64,000 nucleotides of DNA from Christensenellales bacterium (lineage in GTDB: Bacteria; Bacillota; Clostridia; Christensenellales; UBA1431). The notes under the pieces are model-generated. The model had not been told where the DNA came from, made no database searches, and saw only the letters and a program-made list of their open reading frames with translations. Every line of letters starts with the position of its first letter. Positions within the stretch are counted from its first letter, which is position 1. Shown here piece by piece: positions 2,681 to 49,416 of the stretch. The position numbers were made by a program, and so were the translations under genes. The DNA is taken from the NCBI GenBank assembly GCA_040772545.1, contig JAXGXY010000004.1, forward strand, positions 25,613-89,612, written 5' to 3'.

Positions 2681-2684
2681 AACG
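2669..2684. promoter_or_regulatory. parS: parS centromere site (15/16 match to TGTTTCACGTGAAACA), overlapping the parB stop codon
   Basis: tGTTTCACGTGAAACg. The 14-bp palindromic core is perfect. The parB TGA (2678-2680) lies inside it. Bacillus also carries a parS inside spo0J. Confidence 0.85.
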
Positions 2685-2686
2685 CG

Positions 2687-3110
2687 CCGGAGCAAACTCC
2701 GCACCATCGTCGGAGCAAACTCCGCACCGCTCACCTTCGCGCAAGCGCAAAGGCTCGCTCGCTCCGTTGCTCCTCCTCTTCCCCGCAAAGCTGCGCTTTG
2801 CGGGGAGTTGTTCGGGCGGAGCTTCGTAGGATTGTCCGGGCGAGGCATCGCGGCAAGTTGCTTGGGTGGGGCTTTGCGGGGGTTGTTCGGGATGGGCTTC
2901 GCTCGTCGGAGCAAACTCCGCACCGCTCACCTTCTCGCAAGCGCAAAGGTTCGCTCGCTCCGTTGCTCCTCCTCTTCCCCGCAAAGCTATGCTTTGCGGG
3001 GAGTTGTTCGAGCGGAGCTTCGTAGGATTGTCCGGGCGAGGCATCGAAGCAAGTTGCTTGGGCGGGGCTTCACGGGAGATGTTTAAGCAGGGCTTCGAGT
3101 GATGGTTCGG
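2687..3110 (-). repeat. Type I hairpin-cassette repeats, two tandem ~196-bp units
   Basis: CGGAGCAAACTCCG hairpins occur at 2688, 2711 and 2907. CCCCGCAAAGC-nnn-GCTTTGCGGGG hairpins occur at 2781-2805 and 2977-3001, giving a 196-bp period. The sequence is the reverse complement of modules in 8994-10161. Confidence 0.9.
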
Positions 3111-3328
3111 ACGGGGCATTGGGGAATTCCTTAGGGAAAGCCTTCGCGAGCGCAGCGCGTTACCTCATCTTCCTGCACAGCGCCGCTATGCTGGGGTTTC
3201 GGCGCGAAGGGCTCTGTAGTATTATTTAAGCGGGGCTGCGAAGGGGTTTGGAAGGCGTAAACAGACACCGCGCAACCCACACTGCACGCGGTTATATGCG
3301 GCGCAAGAGAAGAAACCCGTAAACGGAT

Positions 3329-3358
3329 AGAAGGGCGCGAACCGCGCCCTCTTCTTTT
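3329..3358 (+). terminator. Orphan rho-independent terminator with no CDS directly upstream
   Basis: GAAGGGCGCG-aac-CGCGCCCT(C)TTC GC-rich stem followed by CTTCTTTT. The nearest upstream plus-strand CDS (parB) ends about 650 nt earlier. Confidence 0.5.
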
Positions 3359-3436
3359 ACTTGCCGTCTTAAGCGGTTGATTGTTTCCCCGGGAAGAAGT
3401 TCTCGAGAGTATACGAACGCGTTATTCTGGCACCCG

Positions 3437-3452
3437 CGTTTCACGTGAAACA
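3437..3452. promoter_or_regulatory. parS: Second parS site (15/16), 3 nt beyond the cvpA stop
   Basis: cGTTTCACGTGAAACa. It has the same perfect 14-bp core as 2670-2683. Confidence 0.8.
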
Positions 3453-4190: not shown

Positions 4191-5306
4191 CTAGGGCAGG
4201 GAGACGAGGTAGCAGTCCTGCCCTGAAAAGGCCAGCACCCTGGAGCCGCAGACGGGGCCGACCCGGTCGATCGTGATGCCGAGCGGATAGGATTCGTCCT
4301 GCCGGCCTTCTAAATTATATACATAGACGGTCCCGGGCGTAAAGCAGTAAATCCTGTCGTTTCCCAGAAGCACATGGAAGCATTCGGGAGGCAGATACAA
4401 CAGGGATTCGCTCATTCCGTAGGAAATCAGGCGCGCCATCGGGTATTCGAACGCGTTGACGCCCTCTTTCAGCGGCGGGGTCAGCACGATGAGGGGTTTG
4501 CCGCTCGCGCCCATTTTCACGTCGTGGATGTTCCACCCGTACACCAGCTGCGAGGAGGCCAGGGCGCCCTTGTAGTCGTAGCACATCACGTGGGTGGACC
4601 CGAGGGCGTAGACATCGTCCGGCGTGAAGAGCGCGCCCTTGACCAGATGCGTGTCCACGGTGATGAGCCCGCTTATCGTGCTGCCGCCCGTATAGGTGGA
4701 GATGCGCGAAACGGGCGTGCCGGCCGAAGTGTCCAGCGTAAGGATCCAGATCATCTTCAGCGTGTCGTCCACGCCGAAAGCCACGGCGTGCTGCGCCCCC
4801 ATGTCGATGGTGTTTACGTCGGCGCCGGATGCGTCGATCACGGTCATGTCGGAGCCCTGCGGCGTCCTGCGGCAGACGCACACCAGCGTTTCCGAACAGG
4901 ACACGGCGCTTATGGTGCCCAAAAACTCCCTTTGAAAAAGGGCCTTGCCCTTCATATCGTATACTTTGAGCATGGACGGCGTATATGCGGCCGCCAGCGA
5001 AGGAGAAAGCGCTAGCTTCACGTCGTCTCCCGCGAAGTCCGCATACCACAGCTCGTCGCCGGAGGCGTTGAGCACGTGCACGGCCCCGTCTTTATGGTAT
5101 GCGATCCCGGTATCGCACACGGCGAAACTGTCGCTGGCCGAAAACGGCAGGGCCACGTTGGATTCCGCCAGGTTTGGCTTTCGCGGGAGGAATAAAAACA
5201 GTCCGCCCGCGACCGCGAGAAGCGCGCAAAGGCCGAGAATCAAATATTTAAGCCGCGGTTTCGGCTTTCGTTTCCTCGCAGCCCTCCGGGTCCGCTCCTG
5301 AACCAT
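4191..5306 (-). CDS. Membrane-anchored hypothetical protein with a beta-rich extracytoplasmic domain (possibly DUF5711-like; family not certain)
   Basis: Basic N-terminus (RRAARKRKPKPR) followed by one TM helix (YLILGLCALLAVAGGLFLF). Codon position 3 is GC-rich. It lies 35 nt upstream of cvpA on the same strand. Confidence 0.6.
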   Translation of the reverse strand: MVQERTRRAARKRKPKPRLKYLILGLCALLAVAGGLFLFLPRKPNLAESNVALPFSASDSFAVCDTGIAYHKDGAVHVLNASGDELWYADFAGDDVKLALSPSLAAAYTPSMLKVYDMKGKALFQREFLGTISAVSCSETLVCVCRRTPQGSDMTVIDASGADVNTIDMGAQHAVAFGVDDTLKMIWILTLDTSAGTPVSRISTYTGGSTISGLITVDTHLVKGALFTPDDVYALGSTHVMCYDYKGALASSQLVYGWNIHDVKMGASGKPLIVLTPPLKEGVNAFEYPMARLISYGMSESLLYLPPECFHVLLGNDRIYCFTPGTVYVYNLEGRQDESYPLGITIDRVGPVCGSRVLAFSGQDCYLVSLP

Positions 5307-8993: not shown

Positions 8994-10161
8994 TCGACCT
9001 GTTTTCTATGTGGCGGCAGTATTTGCCGCGCACTCCATGGCAAAGTCCATCCCGAACAACTCCCGCAAAGCCTCGCCCGGACAATCCTACGAAGCCCCGC
9101 CTAAAACAAAACCTACGAAGCCCCGCCCGAACAACTTCCGACGAAGCCTATCCTGAAAAATCCCTGCAAAGCCCTACCAGAATGAACCCCCGCAAAGCGC
9201 AGCTTTGCGGGGAAGAGGAGGAGCAACGGAGCGGTGCGAAGAATCCCCGGAGAGCGCGGAGCGCAAAGGGGATTATGAGCGGAGCGAAGTTTGCTCCGAC
9301 GAGGGAGCGGTGCGAAGAATCCCCGGAGCGCGGAGCGCAAAGGGGATTATGAGCGGAGCGAAGTTTGCTCCGACGAGGGAGCGATGCGAAGAATCCCCGG
9401 AGCGCGGAGCGCAAAGGGGATTTTGAGCGGAGCGAAGTTTGCTCCGACGATGGTGCGAAGTTTGCTCCGACGAGCGAAGCCCAGCCAGAGCAATGCCCGC
9501 AAAGCCCCGCTTGGACAAACCTACGAAGCCCTGCCTAAAACAAAACCTACGAAGTCCCGCCCGAACAACTTCCCGCGAAGCCTATCCTGAAAAATCTCTG
9601 CAAAGCCCTACCAGAATGAATCCCCGCAAAGCGTAGCTTTGCGGGGAAGAGGAGGAGCAACGGAGCGGTGCGAAGAATCCTCGGAGCGCGGAGCGCAAAG
9701 GGGATTATGAGCGGAGCGAAGTTTGCTCCGACGATGGTGCGAAGTTTGCTCCGACGAGCGAAGCCCAGCCAGAGCAATGCCCGCAAAGCCCCGCTTTGAC
9801 AATCCTACGAAGTCCCGCCCGAACAACTTCCCGCGAAGCCTATCCTGAAAAATCTCTGCAAAGCCCTACCAGAATGAATCCCCGCAGAGCGCAGCTTTGC
9901 GGGGAAGAGGAGGAGCAACGGAGCGGTGCGAAGAATCCCCGGAGCGCGAAGCGCAAAGGGGATTATGAGCGGAGCGAAGTTTGCTCCGACGAGGGAGCGG
10001 TGCGAAGAATCCCCGGAGCGCGAAGCGCAAAGGGGATTATGAGCGGAGCGAAGTTTGCTCCGACGAGGGAGCAGTGCGAAGAATCCCCGGAGCGCGAAGC
10101 GCAAAGGGGATTATGAGTGGAGCGAAGTTTACTCCGACGATGGTGCGAAGTTTGCCCGACG
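8994..10161 (+). repeat. Type I hairpin-cassette repeat array (nested tandem repeats)
   Basis: There are three super-units, each with a CCCCGCAAAGC-nnn-GCTTTGCGGGG hairpin (9188-9212, 9622-9646, 9880-9904). These are followed by 3, 1 and 3 copies of a 74-bp unit, starting at 9236/9312/9386, 9669, and 9928/10002/10076. Boundaries are approximate. Confidence 0.9.
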
Positions 10162-15247: not shown

Positions 15248-15273
15248 CCGCATGGCATCTCGTTGTCATCGAA

Positions 15274-15611
15274 AAACTCCCGGCTGTGCCGCGGGTTTCA
15301 AAAAAGCTTAAATGCAGGGGGTGTGGGGGATAATCCCCCACTTCCAATCCGATCTGACGACTCGCCGGAGCAAAATTTGCACCGCTCATCTTCGCGCGGA
15401 GCGCAAAGGCTCGCTCGCTGCGCTCCACCCCAAGCGGCAAGCCGCGAGGGGACCCCGGTTGCTCCTCCACTTCCCCACAAAGCTCCGCTTTGAGGGGGCC
15501 CCGGAGGCAGAAAAATGCCACATGGAGCGGCATTAAACCACAAAGGAAACCGTCGACAAGCCTCGAAGGGATTTGTCGAGGGCCAGAAACCCCCGGCTGT
15601 GCCGGGGGTTT
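15274..15611. repeat. Composite repeat: type II element (15299-15586) interrupted by a type I segment (~15362-15508), bracketed by a duplicated 25-bp hairpin
   Basis: AAACTCCCGGCTGTGCCGCGGGTTT (15274-15298) versus AAACCCCCGGCTGTGCCGGGGGTTT (15587-15611) match at 23/25. The inner ends align with the reverse complement of 62264-62425. The middle carries the CGGAGCAAA.. and CCCCACAAAGC..GCTTTGAGGGG modules. Confidence 0.85.
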
Positions 15612-15723
15612 ACGATTAATGGGGAATTGCTGTACCGGAAACAACGAAAACCAATAATGCCGCCGTAGCGGTAGTTCGCACAAGAGGAAGAACCGCCGCA
15701 GACATGCGCCGGATAAAGCCGCT

Positions 15724-31340: not shown

Positions 31341-31412
31341 CGTCGGAGCAAACTCCCCGTTGCATAATCGCCTTTGCGCTTGCGCAAAGGCGAGCGGGTG
31401 CGGAGTTTGCGC
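31341..31412 (+). repeat. Solo type I module (long imperfect hairpin)
   Basis: CGGAGCAAACTCC...CGCCTTTGCGC-tt-GCGCAAAGGCG...GCGGAGTTTGC. It matches the reverse complement of 2711-2760. Confidence 0.75.
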
Positions 31413-43224: not shown

Positions 43225-46077
43225 ATGGCGAACACAACGGGGGGGAGCGGCGTGAAGAAACGGGTAGCGACGGTTTTACTCGCATTGCTGGTGATGCTCA
43301 GCGGTTGGACCTTATTGGATCCACAGACGGCATACGCGGCGTTCAATGGAATTATCAAGGTCCGCATATCGCCTTCCAATCACTCGTCCGACATCCGGGT
43401 CATACCCCACGGGAAGTATTTCATCGCCCAGGCGAAAAGCGTACAACTCCTCGACGTCGAGTACAAGGTCCACCGTTCGGGCAGCAACGTGCAGCTCAAG
43501 CACGGCGGCACGGTGCTCTATTCCGGGCCGAAGCTTACTATCACGCGCGCCGCCGGGAACACGGAGGAAAACTTCATCGTGTTTCCCTACAGCCCGACGC
43601 ATAAGACGCGCACGAACTACTACGGGAACATCGAGTTTTCGGTGAATTCGGGCCTGTGCGCGGTGAACCACGTCTACGTCGAAGACTACGTGATGGGCGT
43701 GGCCCCCTACGAGATGAGCCCGAGCTGGCCGGCGCAGGCGCTCAGGGCGCAGGCCGTCTGCGCGCGCAACTACGGCGTTCGGGCGGCGCTCGCGAGCCCC
43801 TCGGGGACCTGGCACCTCGGGGACACGGCAAGTTCGCAGGTCTACAAGGGCGTTCCGGGCGTGAGTTCGTCGGGGACCATCGACTACACCGCGTACAACA
43901 AAGTCAAGAGCGCCGTCGAGGGCACGTCCCGCAAGGTGATGAAGTACGACGGCGCCGTGTTTTCCGCGTACTACTCCGCCTGGAACGGCGGGGAGACGCT
44001 GAACGTACGCGGCTGGACGGGGAACACGTCGTCAGCCTACGGTTATACCGTCGTCAAATCCGACGTGTACGACGACAAGCGCTGCAAGGACGCCTACTGG
44101 ATCACGCGGACCATCAACACATCGCTTTATTCACCGACCGGCAACGACATCAACATGGCCGTGCAGAACATGCTCGTCAAAAAATACAGGGAGCAATACG
44201 GCGTTACGGCTGCCGATGTATACGTCGTGAGCACGACGGGGATCAAAGGGCAGAAGCCGTCCGGCGTGTCCGAAGTTTCGCTCGTCTACGAAAATTTCTA
44301 CTGCGATGTGAGGTTCAATACGGAGTCGGCCACCAAAAAGGTCACGTTCACGGACACTGACCTCAAGCAGGCCCTCGGCATCAGTTCCTCATACATTGCG
44401 TTCAGGATCGAGAATAATTCGGACGGCACGACGACGCTGTACAACGTGCGCTACGGCCACGGGGTGGGGATGAGCCAGCGCGGCGCGCAGCAGATGGCCA
44501 ACGAGGGCATGGGCCACACGGACATCCTGCGCTTCTACTACAACGGGATCACGTTCAGCACGCTTCCCGTTTCTCCGCCTTCGCTGCCGGCCATGCCGGA
44601 CCAGGGGTCGGAAACGGATAAGGAGTACGTCGGGAAAGTTATCAACTGCACCAGCTACGTAAACGTGCGCTCGGGCCCGGGCACCTCCTCGGCGCTGGTC
44701 GGCACGGCCCCGAAAAACGCCATATACCCCGTAAAAAAGGCGTATTATACGAGCGACTGGCATCAGATCGATTACAACGGCAAGACGGCGTACATCCACA
44801 GGGACTATCTCGCGCTGACGCCCGTGCAGCAGGACACGACGGCCAAGGCGGTAGGCAAGGCGACGCGCAGTTCGTACGTGTACGCATCGGCCACCACGAC
44901 GTCCAGCAAGCTGCTGGCGCTGGGAACGGGGAACCTCATGGACATCCTGGACGTTTCCGGCAACTTCTATAAAGTCGTTGCGGCGGGCAAGACGGGTTAT
45001 GTTCCGATTGCCCACGTGACCATCGTATCGGGCAGCGTAGCGGCGCCGACGCCGAAACCGACGCTGAAACCGACGCCGAAGCCGACGCCGAAACCCACGC
45101 CGAAGCCCACGCCGAAGCCCACGCCGAAGCCCACCGCGGCGTCGAAGGCGGTAGCCAAAGCCACGCGCTTCACGTACGTGTACAAGTCCTCCACGACCTC
45201 GTCGGCAAAGCTCCTCCAGCTCGGCCCCGGGAACCTGATGGACGTGCTGGGCACGGCGGGCAAACTCTATAAAGTGGTTGCGGCGGGAAAAACGGGGTAC
45301 GTGCCCATTTCCCACGTGTCGATCGTGTCGGGCAGCATATCGACGCCGAAGCCTACGCCCAAACCGACGCCGAAGCCTACGCCTAAGCCCACCCAGGCGT
45401 CGAAGGCAGTCGCCAAAGCCACGCGCTTCACGTACGTGTACAAGTCCGCTTCGACCTCGTCGACGAAGGTCCTTCAGCTCGGCACCGGAAACCTGATGGA
45501 CGTGCTGGGCACGTCGGGCAGCTACTATAAAGTGGTTGCGGCGGGGAAGACGGGGTACGTTCCGAAATCCCACTTGTCGATCGTATCGGGCAGCATATCG
45601 ACGCCTAAGCCTACGCCAAAACCGACGCCGAAACCCGCCGACACAAAAACAATAGGGAAAGTGGTCAACTGCAACAGCTACGTGAATGTGCGCTCGGGTC
45701 CCGGCACGTCGAAGGCGCTGGTCGGCACGGCCCCGAAGGGCGCGGAATATCCCGTGAAAAAGGCGTTCTATACGAGCAGCTGGCATCAGATCGAATACAA
45801 GGGCAAGACGGCATACATCCACAAGGACTATCTCAAGATTACGACAGCGCCGAAGCCGAAGCCTACCGCGGCGTCCAAAGCCGTGGCCAAAGCCACGCGC
45901 TTCACGTACGTGTACAAGTCCTCCACGACCTCGTCGTCGAAGCTGCTGAAGCTCGGCCCGGGGAACCTGATGGACGTGCTGGGCACGGCGGGCAAACTCT
46001 ATAAAGTGGTTGCGGCAGGCAAGACGGGGTACGTGCCCGTTTCCCACGTGTCGATCGTGTCGGGCAGCGTCAGCTAA
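43225..46077 (+). CDS. Secreted SpoIID/LytB-domain protein with six SH3b-like repeats and (K/T)P linkers
   Basis: Signal-like N-terminus, SpoIID motifs (YVEDYVMGVAPYEM, ALRAQAVCARNYG, YGHGVGMSQRGAQQMA), two NCxSYVNVRSGPGTS SH3b domains, four KATRFTYVYKS...GKTGYVP repeats, and KPTPKPTP linkers. Confidence 0.85.
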   Translation: MANTTGGSGVKKRVATVLLALLVMLSGWTLLDPQTAYAAFNGIIKVRISPSNHSSDIRVIPHGKYFIAQAKSVQLLDVEYKVHRSGSNVQLKHGGTVLYSGPKLTITRAAGNTEENFIVFPYSPTHKTRTNYYGNIEFSVNSGLCAVNHVYVEDYVMGVAPYEMSPSWPAQALRAQAVCARNYGVRAALASPSGTWHLGDTASSQVYKGVPGVSSSGTIDYTAYNKVKSAVEGTSRKVMKYDGAVFSAYYSAWNGGETLNVRGWTGNTSSAYGYTVVKSDVYDDKRCKDAYWITRTINTSLYSPTGNDINMAVQNMLVKKYREQYGVTAADVYVVSTTGIKGQKPSGVSEVSLVYENFYCDVRFNTESATKKVTFTDTDLKQALGISSSYIAFRIENNSDGTTTLYNVRYGHGVGMSQRGAQQMANEGMGHTDILRFYYNGITFSTLPVSPPSLPAMPDQGSETDKEYVGKVINCTSYVNVRSGPGTSSALVGTAPKNAIYPVKKAYYTSDWHQIDYNGKTAYIHRDYLALTPVQQDTTAKAVGKATRSSYVYASATTTSSKLLALGTGNLMDILDVSGNFYKVVAAGKTGYVPIAHVTIVSGSVAAPTPKPTLKPTPKPTPKPTPKPTPKPTPKPTAASKAVAKATRFTYVYKSSTTSSAKLLQLGPGNLMDVLGTAGKLYKVVAAGKTGYVPISHVSIVSGSISTPKPTPKPTPKPTPKPTQASKAVAKATRFTYVYKSASTSSTKVLQLGTGNLMDVLGTSGSYYKVVAAGKTGYVPKSHLSIVSGSISTPKPTPKPTPKPADTKTIGKVVNCNSYVNVRSGPGTSKALVGTAPKGAEYPVKKAFYTSSWHQIEYKGKTAYIHKDYLKITTAPKPKPTAASKAVAKATRFTYVYKSSTTSSSKLLKLGPGNLMDVLGTAGKLYKVVAAGKTGYVPVSHVSIVSGSVS
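44632..46074 (+). repeat. Intragenic domain repeats (near-identical at DNA level)
   Basis: 45139-45335 and 45868-46062 are almost identical nucleotide stretches. The CCGAARCCSACG (KPTP) micro-repeat spans 45049-45132 and recurs at ~45346-45390 and ~45603-45635. Confidence 0.85.
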
Positions 46078-47150: not shown

Positions 47151-47918
47151 TCAGGCCTCCCTGCCGCGGTAGATCCGCATCATTTCTTCCGTATGTTTCC
47201 CGCTTTCGCCGAAGGCATACAGCGGCGGCTCGAAGTACACGCCCGGGCCGCCCAGCTTGACGGCCTCGATCATCACGATCGAGGGCGGCGAACCGGGGCG
47301 AGGGTGCACCATGCGCATGCGTTTGGGTTCGAGCCGGCTAGCGCACAGCGCGTGCACCGCCTCAGCCATGCGCGGCGCCGGGAAGATCACGGCCAGCGCG
47401 CCGCGGTTTTTGAGCAGCAAAAAAGCGCTTTCGCAGACGTCTTTTATCGTGCAGCCCTCTTCCTCCCGCGCCATGCGCCTGCCGGGATGCGGGCTCGAAG
47501 GGCCGGCGCCGCGCCTGCGGTAGGGCGGGTTGCACAGCGCGTAATCGAACGCGCCGTGGCCCAGGACATCGGGGGCGTCCTTGAGGTCGAGCGTAAGCAC
47601 TTCTATCCTGTCCTCCATGCCGGCAAGGAGGACGCTGCGACGCGCCATGTCCGCCATGTCCTCGCGGATCTCGACGCCCGTGACCTGCTCCGGTTCCCTG
47701 CGAGTGCACAGCAGCAGAGGGATCACCCCGGTGCCCGTGCCGAGGTCGACCGCCTTGCAGCCGGGCCGTATGCGCGCGAAATCGGCGAGCATCACGGCGT
47801 CGGTGCCGAAGCAGAAGTCCCCCGGCTTCTGCAGTATGCGGAACCCCAGCAGTTCCAGGTCGTCGAGGCGTTCGCCCGGTCCGACCAGGGCCTGGGCGCG
47901 CATATCGAACGCGCGCAT
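47151..47918 (-). CDS. tRNA (adenine-N6)-methyltransferase-like SAM MTase (YabB/TrmN6-like)
   Basis: DLGTGTGVIPLLL (motif I) and CNPPY (N6-MTase motif IV). It lies 3 nt upstream of rsmI, as with Bacillus yabB-yabC. The start is uncertain (47918, 47903 or track 47999). Confidence 0.8.
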   Translation of the reverse strand: MRAFDMRAQALVGPGERLDDLELLGFRILQKPGDFCFGTDAVMLADFARIRPGCKAVDLGTGTGVIPLLLCTRREPEQVTGVEIREDMADMARRSVLLAGMEDRIEVLTLDLKDAPDVLGHGAFDYALCNPPYRRRGAGPSSPHPGRRMAREEEGCTIKDVCESAFLLLKNRGALAVIFPAPRMAEAVHALCASRLEPKRMRMVHPRPGSPPSIVMIEAVKLGGPGVYFEPPLYAFGESGKHTEEMMRIYRGREA

Positions 47919-47988
47919 ACCTACCACTTCCTTGTCTGCGTCTGCCTGTAGTAAACGTATTATACCATAATTTATGAAGCGGGCACCC

Positions 47989-48276
47989 GGTGCTAGCACC
48001 CGGCCAGACTATAAAACAAGCCGCGCCGCCGGGGTCGAGCGTTGTTTTGTCAAATAGAAGCTTTACCCGGAAGATTTCCACAGCGCTTTACCCAGGCAAA
48101 TCCTTCAAAACCTTGCACGAATGAATCCCACAGGGCCTCACCTGAACAAACCGCACAAAGCGAAGCTTTGGGCGGAAGAGGAGGAGCAACGGAGCGGTGC
48201 GAGGAACCCCCGACGCGCGCAGCGCATAGGGGGTTACGGGCGAAGCGGAGTTTGCTCCGACGTGGGTGCTAGCACC
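47989..48276 (+). repeat. Type I repeat element (48001-48264) bracketed by a duplicated 12-bp palindrome
   Basis: GGTGCTAGCACC occurs at 47989-48000 and again at 48265-48276. The interior carries a degenerate H1 hairpin (48151-48175), AAGAGGAGGAGCAACGGAGCG and the terminal CGGAGTTTGCTCCG (48246-48259). Confidence 0.85.
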
Positions 48277-48310
48277 ATGCATGTGCGCATAACAATATAC
48301 GAAAAAAGGG

Positions 48311-48892
48311 GTGGGAGCCATGCGCATGATCTGGGGCCTGATGATCCTCGCCGGCATCGCGGGCGGCATCATCGGCGGTTCGGGCGACAAGCTCCTCGAC
48401 GCCGCCCTGTCGGCCTGCGGCGACGCCGTCACGATCAGCATCACGCTCGTCGCCGCGTACGCCCTGTGGATGGGGATCATGAACATCGCGAAGGAAGCGG
48501 GCATGGTCTCCGCCCTCGCGCGCGCGCTGAGGCCCGTGACGCGGCGGCTGTTCAAGGGCGTGCCGGAGGGCGCGCCGGCGCACGAATACATTTCGCTGAA
48601 CCTCTCGGCGAACGTCCTCGGGCTGGGGAACGCGGCCACGCCCTACGGCATCAGGGCGATGGAGGAACTGCAAAGATACAACCGGAAGCCGCGCTTTGCC
48701 ACCAACGCGATGTGCATGCTGCTCATCGTCAACGCGTCCTCGGTGCAGGTCTTGCCCACCACGGTGATGGCATTGCGCGCGTCGGCGGGAAGTGCGGAGC
48801 CCGCCGCCATCGCGCTCCCGGCGCTGCTCGCGACCGCCGTAAACACCGTTTTCGCCGTCGCCCTCGCAAAACTGGCGGAGCGTTATCTGTGA
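48311..48892 (+). CDS. spmA: Spore maturation protein A (nucleoside-recognition/Gate domain)
   Basis: MRMIWGLMILAGIAGGII..., polytopic, paired with spmB. Confidence 0.85.
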   Translation: MGAMRMIWGLMILAGIAGGIIGGSGDKLLDAALSACGDAVTISITLVAAYALWMGIMNIAKEAGMVSALARALRPVTRRLFKGVPEGAPAHEYISLNLSANVLGLGNAATPYGIRAMEELQRYNRKPRFATNAMCMLLIVNASSVQVLPTTVMALRASAGSAEPAAIALPALLATAVNTVFAVALAKLAERYL

Positions 48893-49416
48893 TGGATGCG
48901 GTGTTCGTCTTTTCCCTGCTGCCGGTCGCGTTCATCTTCGCGGTCGTCGCGGCGGGGCTTATAAAAAAAGTGGACGTCTACACGGCGTTCGTCGAGGGCG
49001 CGAGGCAGGGCCTGAAAACAGTGGTCAAGGTCCTGCCCTACCTGGTCGCGATGCTGATGGCGATCGCGCTATTCAGGGCCGGAGGCATCCTTCCGCTCGT
49101 GGAGACGGTGTTCAGGCCAGTTTTGAAAGCCGTGGGCGCGCCCGAGGAAGTCGGGCCGCTGTTTTTCATAAGGCCGTTTTCGGGCAGCGCCGCGCTGTCC
49201 ATGCTCGCCGATATCTATGCGCGCGCGGGCCCCGACAGCTTTGCAGGGCAGGTCGCGTCCGTGATGATGGGATCGACGGAGACGGTGTTCTATACGGCGG
49301 CGGTCTATTTTGCGGCGGCCAGGGTCGAGAGGACGCGGCACACCATCCCCGTCGCGCTGCTGGCGTCGGTGGTCGGCCTCATCGCTTCCGTATGGTTTTG
49401 CAGGTGGCTTTTGTAA
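48892..49416 (+). CDS. spmB: Spore maturation protein B
   Basis: MDAVFVFSLLPVAFIF...; its ATG overlaps the spmA stop (TGATG). The track ORF 48121..49416 is an artificial 5' extension in the same frame. Confidence 0.85.
   Translation: MDAVFVFSLLPVAFIFAVVAAGLIKKVDVYTAFVEGARQGLKTVVKVLPYLVAMLMAIALFRAGGILPLVETVFRPVLKAVGAPEEVGPLFFIRPFSGSAALSMLADIYARAGPDSFAGQVASVMMGSTETVFYTAAVYFAAARVERTRHTIPVALLASVVGLIASVWFCRWLL

Follow-up and report, generated by a model that had tools for sequence, protein, structure and literature searches.

A composite repeat inserted at a conserved palindrome in the spmA intergenic region of a Christensenellales bacterium

Introduction

[quoted passage not shown] During spacer acquisition by clustered regularly interspaced short palindromic repeat (CRISPR) loci, strand transfers on opposite strands at the two borders of the often palindromic repeat duplicate the whole repeat, and casposons produce duplications of 14-15 bp and use the ends of tRNA genes. 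To our knowledge, palindrome-spanning duplications are not described for the BOX elements of pneumococci, and we know of no bacterial non-coding repeat that spreads by target-primed reverse transcription. Here we analyze a stretch of 64,000 nucleotides from a Christensenellales bacterium (contig JAXGXY010000004.1, positions 25,613 to 89,612; hereafter, the window), in which two identical copies of a 12-bp palindrome, GGTGCTAGCACC, bracket a 264-bp composite repeat upstream of an spmA-like gene. [quoted passage not shown]

Insertion into a single-copy ancestral palindrome

The two copies of GGTGCTAGCACC, at 47989-48000 and 48265-48276, had been recorded in an earlier note made from the letters of the window, and they have no other match in the window at up to one mismatch (0.16 expected). 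At up to three mismatches, there are 27 matches against 27.6 expected, a count equal to chance, so that there is no dispersed family of related sites. As a direct repeat, the identity of the two copies extends over exactly 12 bp, whereas the inverted-repeat reading gives 13 bp, because GGTGCTAGCACC is its own reverse complement and the inner neighbors are C and G. The intervening DNA, 48001-48264, is non-coding and consists of three parts, including one complete type I unit, so that the type I repeat that the note had placed between the palindromes is indeed present. The features of the spacer, with the strand in parentheses, are:

47959-47967 (-): TGGTATAAT (plus strand: ATTATACCA), extended -10-like box read by eye, kept in the empty and filled spacers of all relatives
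47989-48000 (no strand): left palindrome copy GGTGCTAGCACC (sequence match), its outer side adjoining the ancestral left flank
48001-48059 (+): 5' segment of the insert (59 bp), starting with CGGCCAGAC and containing an AAAACAA...TTGTTTT inverted repeat (sequence reading)
48060-48147 (+): four sub-repeats of about 22 nt, of the nnAGCnTTACCCnGnAnnATnCC type (compared with 9040-9190 and with loci L117-L130)
48151-48175 (+): hairpin 1 of the unit, CCGCACAAAGC GAA GCTTTGGGCGG (RNA fold; z = -4.5 for the whole unit)
48178-48196 (+): strand s2, GAGGAGGAGCAACGGAGCG, the invariant core of the family (conservation among unit copies)
48197-48241 (+): hairpin 2 region, with the stem AACCCCC/GGGGGTT and an inner GCGC...GCGC stem (folding)
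48242-48262 (+): strand s1, GAAGCGGAGTTTGCTCCGACG, the sharp 3' end of the element (alignment of 39 units)
48265-48276 (no strand): right palindrome copy (sequence match), 2 nt past the element end and adjoining the ancestral right flank atgcatGTGCGCATAACAAT
48287-48293 (+): GCATAAC box, between the palindrome and the spmA ribosome-binding site; GCATAA is kept in all relatives

The complete type I unit (48151-48262) shares 84% identity with the copy at 9619-9740, and in other composite copies, too, the unit is preceded by a sub-repeat array of this kind. For the 5' segment, no second copy was found in the sequences searched. The two bases between the unit end and the right palindrome are TG.

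Relatives at graded distance were identified through the SpmA protein. In the contigs of the same species (L001-L004), the spacer is filled and 99% identical to that of the window, and the insert is also present in three contigs of a sister lineage (L005, L120 and L128; SpmA 98%, about 95% nucleotide identity). The spacer of L006 (SpmA 86%) is 130 bp long and reads ...ATTATACCATATCTGCGGACCGTTAAC GGGTGCTAGCAC AAAGCGTGTGCGCATAACAAT..., with a single palindrome and no repeat, and that of L007 (SpmA 85%), 128 bp long, has the same layout with one GGGTGCTAGCAC; in both, the single GGGTGCTAGCAC lies between the same ATTATACCA and GTGTGCGCATAACAAT boxes. The spacer of L008 (SpmA 76%) contains one palindrome copy (GGGTGCTAGTACCC) followed by a different insert, and in the 117-bp spacer of L137 (SpmA 70%), another inverted repeat occupies the position of the palindrome. 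Given that the element-free spacers of relatives contain one palindrome, the repeat was inserted and the palindrome was duplicated. Because the insert is found in L001-L004 and in the sister lineage, but not in L006 or L007, the insertion arose after the split from the lineage of the latter two, and the reconstructed pre-insertion site would read ...GGGCACCC GGTGCTAGCACC ATGCATGTGCGCATAACAAT....

The earlier note had suggested searching related genomes for empty sites and had considered that the palindrome might belong to the consensus of the element. L006 and L007 provide the uninterrupted, single-copy site, and GGTGCTAGCACC accompanies no other copy of the element in the window and 137 loci, so that an origin of the palindrome within the element was rejected. 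Judging from these comparisons, the palindrome is ancestral, single-copy and specific to the locus. It has been conserved in the window, L006, L007 and L008 while the adjacent bases diverged, which argues for a functional site, as expected of a site bound by a protein; probably, it binds a symmetric regulator.

These empty sites also bear on the idea that two operators, one per promoter, were selected independently and that the repeat merely lies between them. A divergent promoter pair could use two operators, and parS sites, which are duplicated elsewhere in the window (see below), are normally present in several copies. However, this view is contradicted by the single site in the short-spacer relatives; furthermore, the identity between the copies covers 12 bp exactly, 2 nt separate the element end from the right copy, and the same arrangement recurs at unrelated palindromes, all of which makes this explanation hardly tenable.

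In the ancestral spacer, a single palindrome would have stood between the TGGTATAAT box on the leftward side and the GCATAAC box on the rightward side; each side now keeps a copy, and the insertion would have moved the two promoter regions 276 bp further apart. Of what the note called a divergent promoter region, the divergent intergenic spacer between operons stands, whereas a simple sigma-70 promoter scan of this spacer, which requires a -35 element, detected no promoter and the conserved boxes were read by eye. The TGGTATAAT box is a likely promoter element of the leftward operon, and the GCATAAC box possibly represents the -10 element of the rightward promoter. In the sister lineage (L005 and L128), the left palindrome copy is GATGCTAGTACC, with two substitutions, and the right one is unchanged; the right, spmA-proximal copy is intact in all nine insert-carrying contigs. 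An intact right copy next to a changed left one would fit a need of the rightward gene pair for the site, although this is a weak hint only, given the divergence of about 8% in this spacer.

In L008, a partial element (4195-4432), consisting of sub-repeats and a hairpin-1-like CCGTAAAGCGCAGCTTATGG, lies downstream of the GCATAA box, with no duplication. This element differs from the one in the window, is located further downstream and lacks a duplication, and is thus an invasion of this spacer that happened independently.

Flank duplications at other copies

The flanks of the element copies in the window and the 137 loci were compared systematically, first for exact flank-flank matches of at least 10 bp. 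In a second pass, the 45-nt stretch that follows the last unit end was scored against the 770 upstream nucleotides, and segments of the same locus served as controls. The controls scored about 7.6, with a maximum of 10, except at two loci with duplicated sequence within the controls. Of the 50 distinct element groups, four (about 8%) have a non-internal match of at least 12 bp:

L079: 21 bp, in an unrelated Bacillota genome
L134: 16 bp, parS
Window, parS locus: 14 bp
Window, spmA spacer: 12 bp

Three of these four matches begin 0-3 nt after ...CCGACG; the match at the parS locus of the window begins 24 nt past the last matched unit end, and an end-like variant, CCGGCG, abuts the first parS copy. 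The sharp end ...GTTTGCTCCGACG lies next to the duplicated copy, at a distance of 0-3 nt, at five junctions, namely, in the spmA spacer, at the first parS copy of the window, at both parS copies of L134 and in L079. A further duplication of 26 bp (about 38 bp with mismatches), which includes a -10-like box and a palindrome, was found in L089. Long flank duplications are real and enriched, but only about one copy in ten has one. The note had proposed to compare flank identity with controls, and long matches turned out to be more common than in the controls. The 49-bp flank repeat of L054 does not count as a target duplication: the copy in L050 ends with the same module, which is, accordingly, internal to the element.

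At the parS locus of the window, the first copy (2669-2684, TGTTTCACGTGAAACG) is located at the parB stop codon and the second (3437-3452) reads CGTTTCACGTGAAACA, each with one mismatch to the 16-bp consensus TGTTNCACGTGAAACA (0.1 such matches expected by chance). The outer bases are T...G in the first copy and C...A in the second, so that the T and A of the consensus survive on the outer sides only, in keeping with one 16-bp parS of which 14 bp were duplicated; a reversed unit end abuts the first copy. The layout in L134, from a second species (ParB 76% identical), is the same but cleaner: both parS copies are CGTTTCACGTGAAACA, and their inner sides are each touched by a unit end aimed at parS (with a slash at the junction, ...AAACA/CGTCGGCG... 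and ...GCTCCGACG/CGTTTCAC...). Both the outer bases and the recurrence of the layout in L134 agree with the note, which had listed the palindrome repeated at 2669 and 3437 as a parallel case. Between the repeat cluster and the second parS copy (3215-3365, plus strand), there is a -10-like GTAGTATTAT followed, about 120 nt later, by a strong terminator-like hairpin (GAAGGGCGCGAACCGCGCCCTTC and a T run). This region is conserved in L138 and without a match in Rfam, and it may be a gene for a small RNA.

The other parallel case in the note, a hairpin repeated at 15274 and 15587, is clearest in L130 (about 95% nucleotide identity), where the type II element lacks the nested type I fragment; to its left lies AAACCCCCGGCTGTG--TGG-TTTAC and to its right a perfect AAACCCCCGGCTGTGCCGGGGGTTTAC. 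In the window, the left AAACCCCCGGCTGTGCCGGGGGTTTAC copy has three substitutions and the right copy is identical to that of L130. From these alignments, the type II element lies between two copies of a duplicated terminator hairpin of about 27 bp, of which the left one is decaying independently in two lineages. When the window (15248-15723) is compared to L133 (2603-2790; DUF3048 protein 98% identical), the spacer is wholly different, with another terminator and no repeats; very close relatives have had entire intergenic regions replaced.

Mechanism of insertion

The account that we favor, with a probability of roughly 0.55, is that the 264-bp repeat was inserted into the conserved palindrome of 12-14 bp and that staggered breaks at the borders of the palindrome, followed by fill-in, gave rise to the 12-bp target duplication. 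It combines the insertion at a single-copy ancestral site, the sharp 3' end beside a duplicated copy and the recurrence at other palindromes with a geometry of the breaks and a type of enzyme that we infer. Each border of the palindrome would receive a single-strand break, the two breaks lying on opposite strands, such that each flank would keep a complete single-stranded copy; the element would then be joined between the flanks, and gap filling would convert both overhangs into complete copies, yielding the target duplication. This geometry is that of Cas1 duplicating the CRISPR repeat. The length of the duplication follows the size of the palindrome or hairpin (12, 14-16 and about 27 bp), and would be set by the target rather than by a fixed spacing of an enzyme, which suggests that a structure or a bound symmetric protein is recognized and not a sequence. 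Likewise, the targets share no sequence, so that what is recognized would have to be a hairpin or cruciform, or else the edges of a symmetric protein on its site (ParB on parS, a regulator on the palindrome). The insertion into palindromic or hairpin targets with long duplication that the note had put forward, with replication or repair slippage as the alternative, is supported by the empty sites, the flank comparison, and the parS and terminator loci.

Several observations weigh against staggered breaks at palindrome borders as the explanation. The 21-bp duplication in L079 is one arm of a hairpin and not a whole palindrome. About 90% of the 50 groups, including every tRNA-adjacent copy, have no flank duplication, which bears out the caution in the note that the rule is not universal; long duplications either are not obligatory for every insertion or have decayed at the older copies. 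No clean empty site was recovered for parS, where L136 ends about 90 bp past parS and L134 is filled, or for the terminator locus, where the spacers of L131 (DUF3048 protein 69% identical) and L133 cannot be aligned and contain different terminators. The 5' end of the insert is not set by any consensus of the family. The first five bases of the right palindrome copy, GGTGC, are the usual sequence after the element end in the arrays of this lineage (CCGACGATGGTGCGAAG), so that the right junction could be a microhomology junction. Finally, no enzyme for the insertion was identified among the open reading frames (ORFs) around 55 Clostridial loci.

Microhomology at the right junction is what template switching during replication or repair would predict. 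In that scenario, the palindrome would be copied, synthesis would stall at the hairpin or bound protein, the nascent strand would anneal by a few bases to a repeat elsewhere and be extended for about 264 nt, and, after return through GGTGC, the palindrome would be copied again. The varying duplication length (12-27 bp) and the lack of duplication at most copies fit this scenario. So does the opening of the insert and of other composites, where the end motif is present in direct orientation as a degenerate copy (GCCAGAC or GCCGAC versus TCCGACG), as though one entire period of an array had been copied. Moreover, the arrays differ between close relatives: the region 8994-10161 contains three composite copies compared to one in L130 (1190-1760), with variation also in the number of 74-nt sub-units, and the parS locus contains two composite units in the window (2683-3100) but one in a strain with a 98% identical ParB (L138, 3790-3990). 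The arrays, then, expand and contract quickly, which indicates that the repeats are recombinogenic. Conversely, at parS and in L079, the canonical end abuts the duplicated copy without shared bases, no microhomology is visible at the left junction in the spmA spacer or at either junction of the 27-bp case, and no 264-bp donor was found in the sequences searched. A lineage-specific 25-mer retrieved 14 metagenome stretches in which the insert sequence occurs only at the same locus, in a search that is far from complete. Template switching is a serious rival to staggered breaks, albeit, in our assessment, an unlikely one.

Structure and distribution of the two-hairpin unit

The core of the repeat is a strand-specific unit of about 105-130 nt around GAGGAGGAGCAACGRAGCG, with two hairpins and two invariant strands, s2 and s1. 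In Clostridia, the unit is built of a variable hairpin, s2, a second variable hairpin and (R)AGCGNAGTTTG(C/T)(TC/GA)CGACGA, beyond which the unique flank begins. Sequence reading and folds pair GCAAC of s2 with GTT(T)GC of s1. The flanking G.A/A.G mismatches have a G-C closing pair, and three of them are replaced by Watson-Crick pairs in the TCC variant. In the unit of the spmA spacer, GGAGCAAC of s2 pairs with GTTTGCTCC of s1.

The stems pair despite sequence change, with at least 7 pairs in all 59 variants of hairpin 1 and all 60 variants of hairpin 2. The predicted stems contain 112 G.T pairs versus 2 A.C single mismatches, an asymmetry that argues for selection on one single strand, be it RNA or single-stranded DNA. 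The forward (GAGGAGG) strand folds better in 65 of 67 units, a gap that is partly due to base composition, and the z-scores of the folds range from -4.5 to -5.8. Covariation analysis based on a MAFFT alignment, in which the variable stems were misaligned, yielded 9 pairs with none covarying, and folds of individual sequences and wobble counts were used instead.

Covariance-model searches for a known RNA family of Rfam produced no match in the window at the gathering thresholds and, at E<=1 in five other unit-carrying loci, matches outside the unit only (a tRNA, the end of a group II intron with a weak score and a snoRNA match due to chance). Literature searches with strings of the core sequence found nothing related, and those for palindromic targets with long duplications found nothing specific.

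The 19-mer core is present in at least 108 stretches among species-representative genomes, from many Clostridia and from Myxococcota; the Clostridia among the listed matches include Oscillospiraceae, Acutalibacteraceae, Lachnospiraceae, Christensenella and Flavonifractor. Complete units were also detected in 15 predicted viral contigs of IMG/VR (L139-L153), in several of which a start codon follows the unit end at a distance of about 15 nt. In L124, L127 and L032, the unit occurs together with a related 471-aa protein, a putative phage terminase large subunit by sequence reading, which in L124 is encoded just downstream of the unit. In L012 (340-1773), as well as L031, L049, L052, L065, L071 and L102, a complete unit lies in frame in the N-terminal, low-complexity part of a 477-aa ORF, an arrangement reminiscent of the Rickettsia palindromic elements inside genes. 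The region of this ORF is common to gut Clostridia of several genera, begins about 440 bp past the weak match to a group II intron 3' end and adjoins a gene that, by sequence reading, is putatively TraG/VirD4-like.

Clustering of the ORFs around the 55 Clostridial loci recovered only conjugation genes, phage terminase, ABC ATPase and similar genes. No transposase, recombinase or reverse transcriptase recurs beside these loci, which fits a non-autonomous element.

The s1-type 3' end abuts not only parS but also the 3' ends of tRNA and tmRNA genes and other flanks. At the following loci, 0-1 nt separate the 3' end of the unit from the 3' (CCA) terminus of a gene on the opposite strand that encodes a tRNA (Leu, Val or Ile) or tmRNA:

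L053: 1729-1931
L121: 5815-6009
L123: 2476-2700
L044: 6340-6807

The 3' ends of tRNA and tmRNA genes are classical integrase targets, and the tRNA ends TGGTGC share GGTGC with both the palindrome and the continuation of the arrays. Both would fit site-specific recombination, in which a circular element with the same core would have recombined with a chromosomal site, leaving the core on both sides. Nevertheless, no second copy of the tRNA end was found on the far side of the tRNA-adjacent units. The duplicated sequences differ wholly between the loci (an operator-like palindrome, parS, a terminator), so that each copy would need its own matching core, and no integrase recurs near the 55 loci. 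We regard this route as extremely unlikely.

Near one of these tRNA genes, in L123, a 37-nt unit (CCTTTGCCGCATTCGAACCTTCGGTTCTCTGCGGATT) is present in four tandem copies beside tRNA-Ile/tRNA-Ala (2100-2290) and once beyond tRNA-Ala (2955). This unit, too, is a hairpin repeat, and it is related to the type II element through the first hairpin of the latter.

Comparison with known element classes

In Myxococcota (Polyangia, including Labilithrix luteola), the same core, preceded by GCGACGACGAGG and accompanied by a hairpin, occupies the middle of MITEs of about 210 bp that are present in several copies per genome:

L041: 4360-4560, Myxococcota MITE
L016: 1540-1740, Myxococcota MITE

These MITEs have terminal inverted repeats of about 25 bp, (C)TAGTGCACCGCCGTCGAAATAGC ... 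GCTATTTCGACGGCGGTGCACTAG, and are flanked by CTA/TAG, with CTAG or TTAG targets. The arrangement of the core is a circular permutation of that in the Clostridial unit, so that one structured core is common to two phyla.

The Clostridial units resemble the MITEs of the IS630/Tc1-mariner type in being short, non-coding, multi-copy, intergenic and strongly self-pairing. However, the defining traits of that type, a TA duplication at CTAG and long terminal inverted repeats, are found in the Myxococcota elements with the GAGGAGGAGCAACGAAGCG core only, whereas the Clostridial units have no terminal inverted repeats, end in CGACGA without TA preference and are strand-specific. The ends of the insert in the spmA spacer, CGGCCAGAC... 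and ...CTCCGACGTG, are only weakly similar, and only by counting the palindrome halves as ends would terminal inverted repeats be present. Unlike the fixed, short duplications of a classical MITE, those observed here are 12, 14-16, 21 and about 27 bp long, with none detectable at about 90% of the copies.

The spmA insert can nonetheless be read as such an element, inserted in the central CTAG of the palindrome with TA duplication and bounded by a 6-bp terminal inverted repeat, GCACCC...GGGTGC; in that case, what appears as a 12-bp duplication would consist of a half-site in the flank, TA and an element end equal to the other half-site by chance. The CTAG center and the inner C and G, which extend the inverted match to 13 bp, are compatible with this reading, as are the Myxococcota elements, classical MITEs with the same core, GTGCACC...GGTGCAC ends and CTAG/TTAG targets, the right end of which (TTTCGACGGCGGTGCAC) resembles TTTGCTCCGACGTGGGTGC in the spmA spacer. 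But the chance equality of element ends and target half-sites has a likelihood of about 1 in 1000 or less, 11 other composite copies of the lineage do not end in GGTGC/TA, and about 20 Clostridial units end in CGACGA without TA preference. With the duplications at parS, at the terminator and in L079 also left unexplained, an IS630/Tc1-like insertion appears very unlikely.

Like REP sequences and BIMEs, the units are intergenic hairpin repeats in mosaic clusters with variable numbers of modules; they differ in being much longer than the imperfect REP palindrome of 20-40 nt, with two hairpins, two invariant purine-rich strands and no GTAG-type head, and no RAYT-like or HUH-type gene was seen to recur near the 55 loci. 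With pneumococcal BOX (boxA-boxB(n)-boxC), they share modularity, the 74-nt sub-unit being present 1-3 times, a stable predicted RNA structure and the absence of an adjacent transposase; there is no sequence relationship, and the unit is spread far more widely, across Clostridial families, conjugative-element-like regions, viral contigs and Myxococcota. The likeness to Cas1-type integration, as in CRISPR spacer acquisition and casposons, is one of geometry only: here, a structured repeat is inserted and not a spacer, and the targets are unrelated in sequence. No Cas1 or casposase was identified among the window proteins near the elements, although the window proteins were not scanned systematically.

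Features shared with the target-primed reverse transcription of long and short interspersed nuclear elements (LINEs and SINEs) are the defined 3' end, the variable 5' end, the variable duplications, the occasional 3' microhomology and the selection on one strand; unlike LINEs and SINEs, the units have no linked reverse transcriptase at the 55 loci and no poly-A or comparable tail. We can only tentatively suggest, as a quite unlikely possibility, that the unit is an undescribed, widespread structured module of RNA or single-stranded DNA that is copied in Clostridia by a primer- or structure-dependent route, such as reverse transcription or strand transfer. Copying would start at exposed 3' ends or nicks (hairpins, protein-bound palindromes, tRNA or tmRNA ends), which would leave the 3' end precise and the 5' end ragged and make the target duplication match the hairpin in length. 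If so, the unit would represent a bacterial counterpart of SINE-like retroposition or the substrate of a structure-guided integrase without fixed spacing.

Neighboring genes and other repeats in the window

The spacer separates the operon of an MTS-type methyltransferase and rsmI from the spmA/spmB gene pair on the opposite strand, and the order of genes is the same in L002-L008 and L137:

46314-47147 (-): rsmI, the next gene after the methyltransferase gene
47151-47918 (-): MTS-type methyltransferase gene, first in the leftward operon (translation; Pfam PF05175 MTS, E=4.5e-08)
48320-48892 (+): spmA-like gene, with a nucleoside-recognition 'Gate' domain (domain match); homologs are named 'spore maturation protein A' by JGI
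48889-49416 (+): spmB-like gene, following the spmA-like gene

Further to the left, the gene for a SpoIID/SH3-domain protein (43225-46077) contains internal 258-bp repeats and runs with a 12-nt period (GACGCCGAAACC-like), and is about 170 nt longer in the sister lineage (L005).

At 31341-31412, there is a mini-element in which a hairpin (CGCCTTTGCGC TTGCGCAAAGGCG) is combined with two unit ends, one reversed (CGTCGGAGCAAACTCC) and one forward (GGTGCGGAGTTTGCGC). The flanking sequences GGCGGTTGTCA and GGCGGGGTCA resemble each other and may represent a decayed duplication of about 11 bp, although the resemblance by itself is not significant.

Implications

If the staggered-break account is correct, the Clostridial element would be a mobile repeat with a target duplication set by the structure of the target and not by the enzyme, which is unusual for bacterial repeats. 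This would account for the finding that repeat clusters are flanked on either side by duplicates of regulatory palindromes, parS sites and terminators. The core of the unit is a candidate for a new RNA or single-stranded DNA motif, without an Rfam match, that is common to Clostridia, conjugative-element-like regions, viral contigs and the MITEs of Myxococcota. In the spmA spacer, the insertion rewires a divergent promoter pair such that each side keeps the shared site, that is, regulatory DNA was split without being destroyed.

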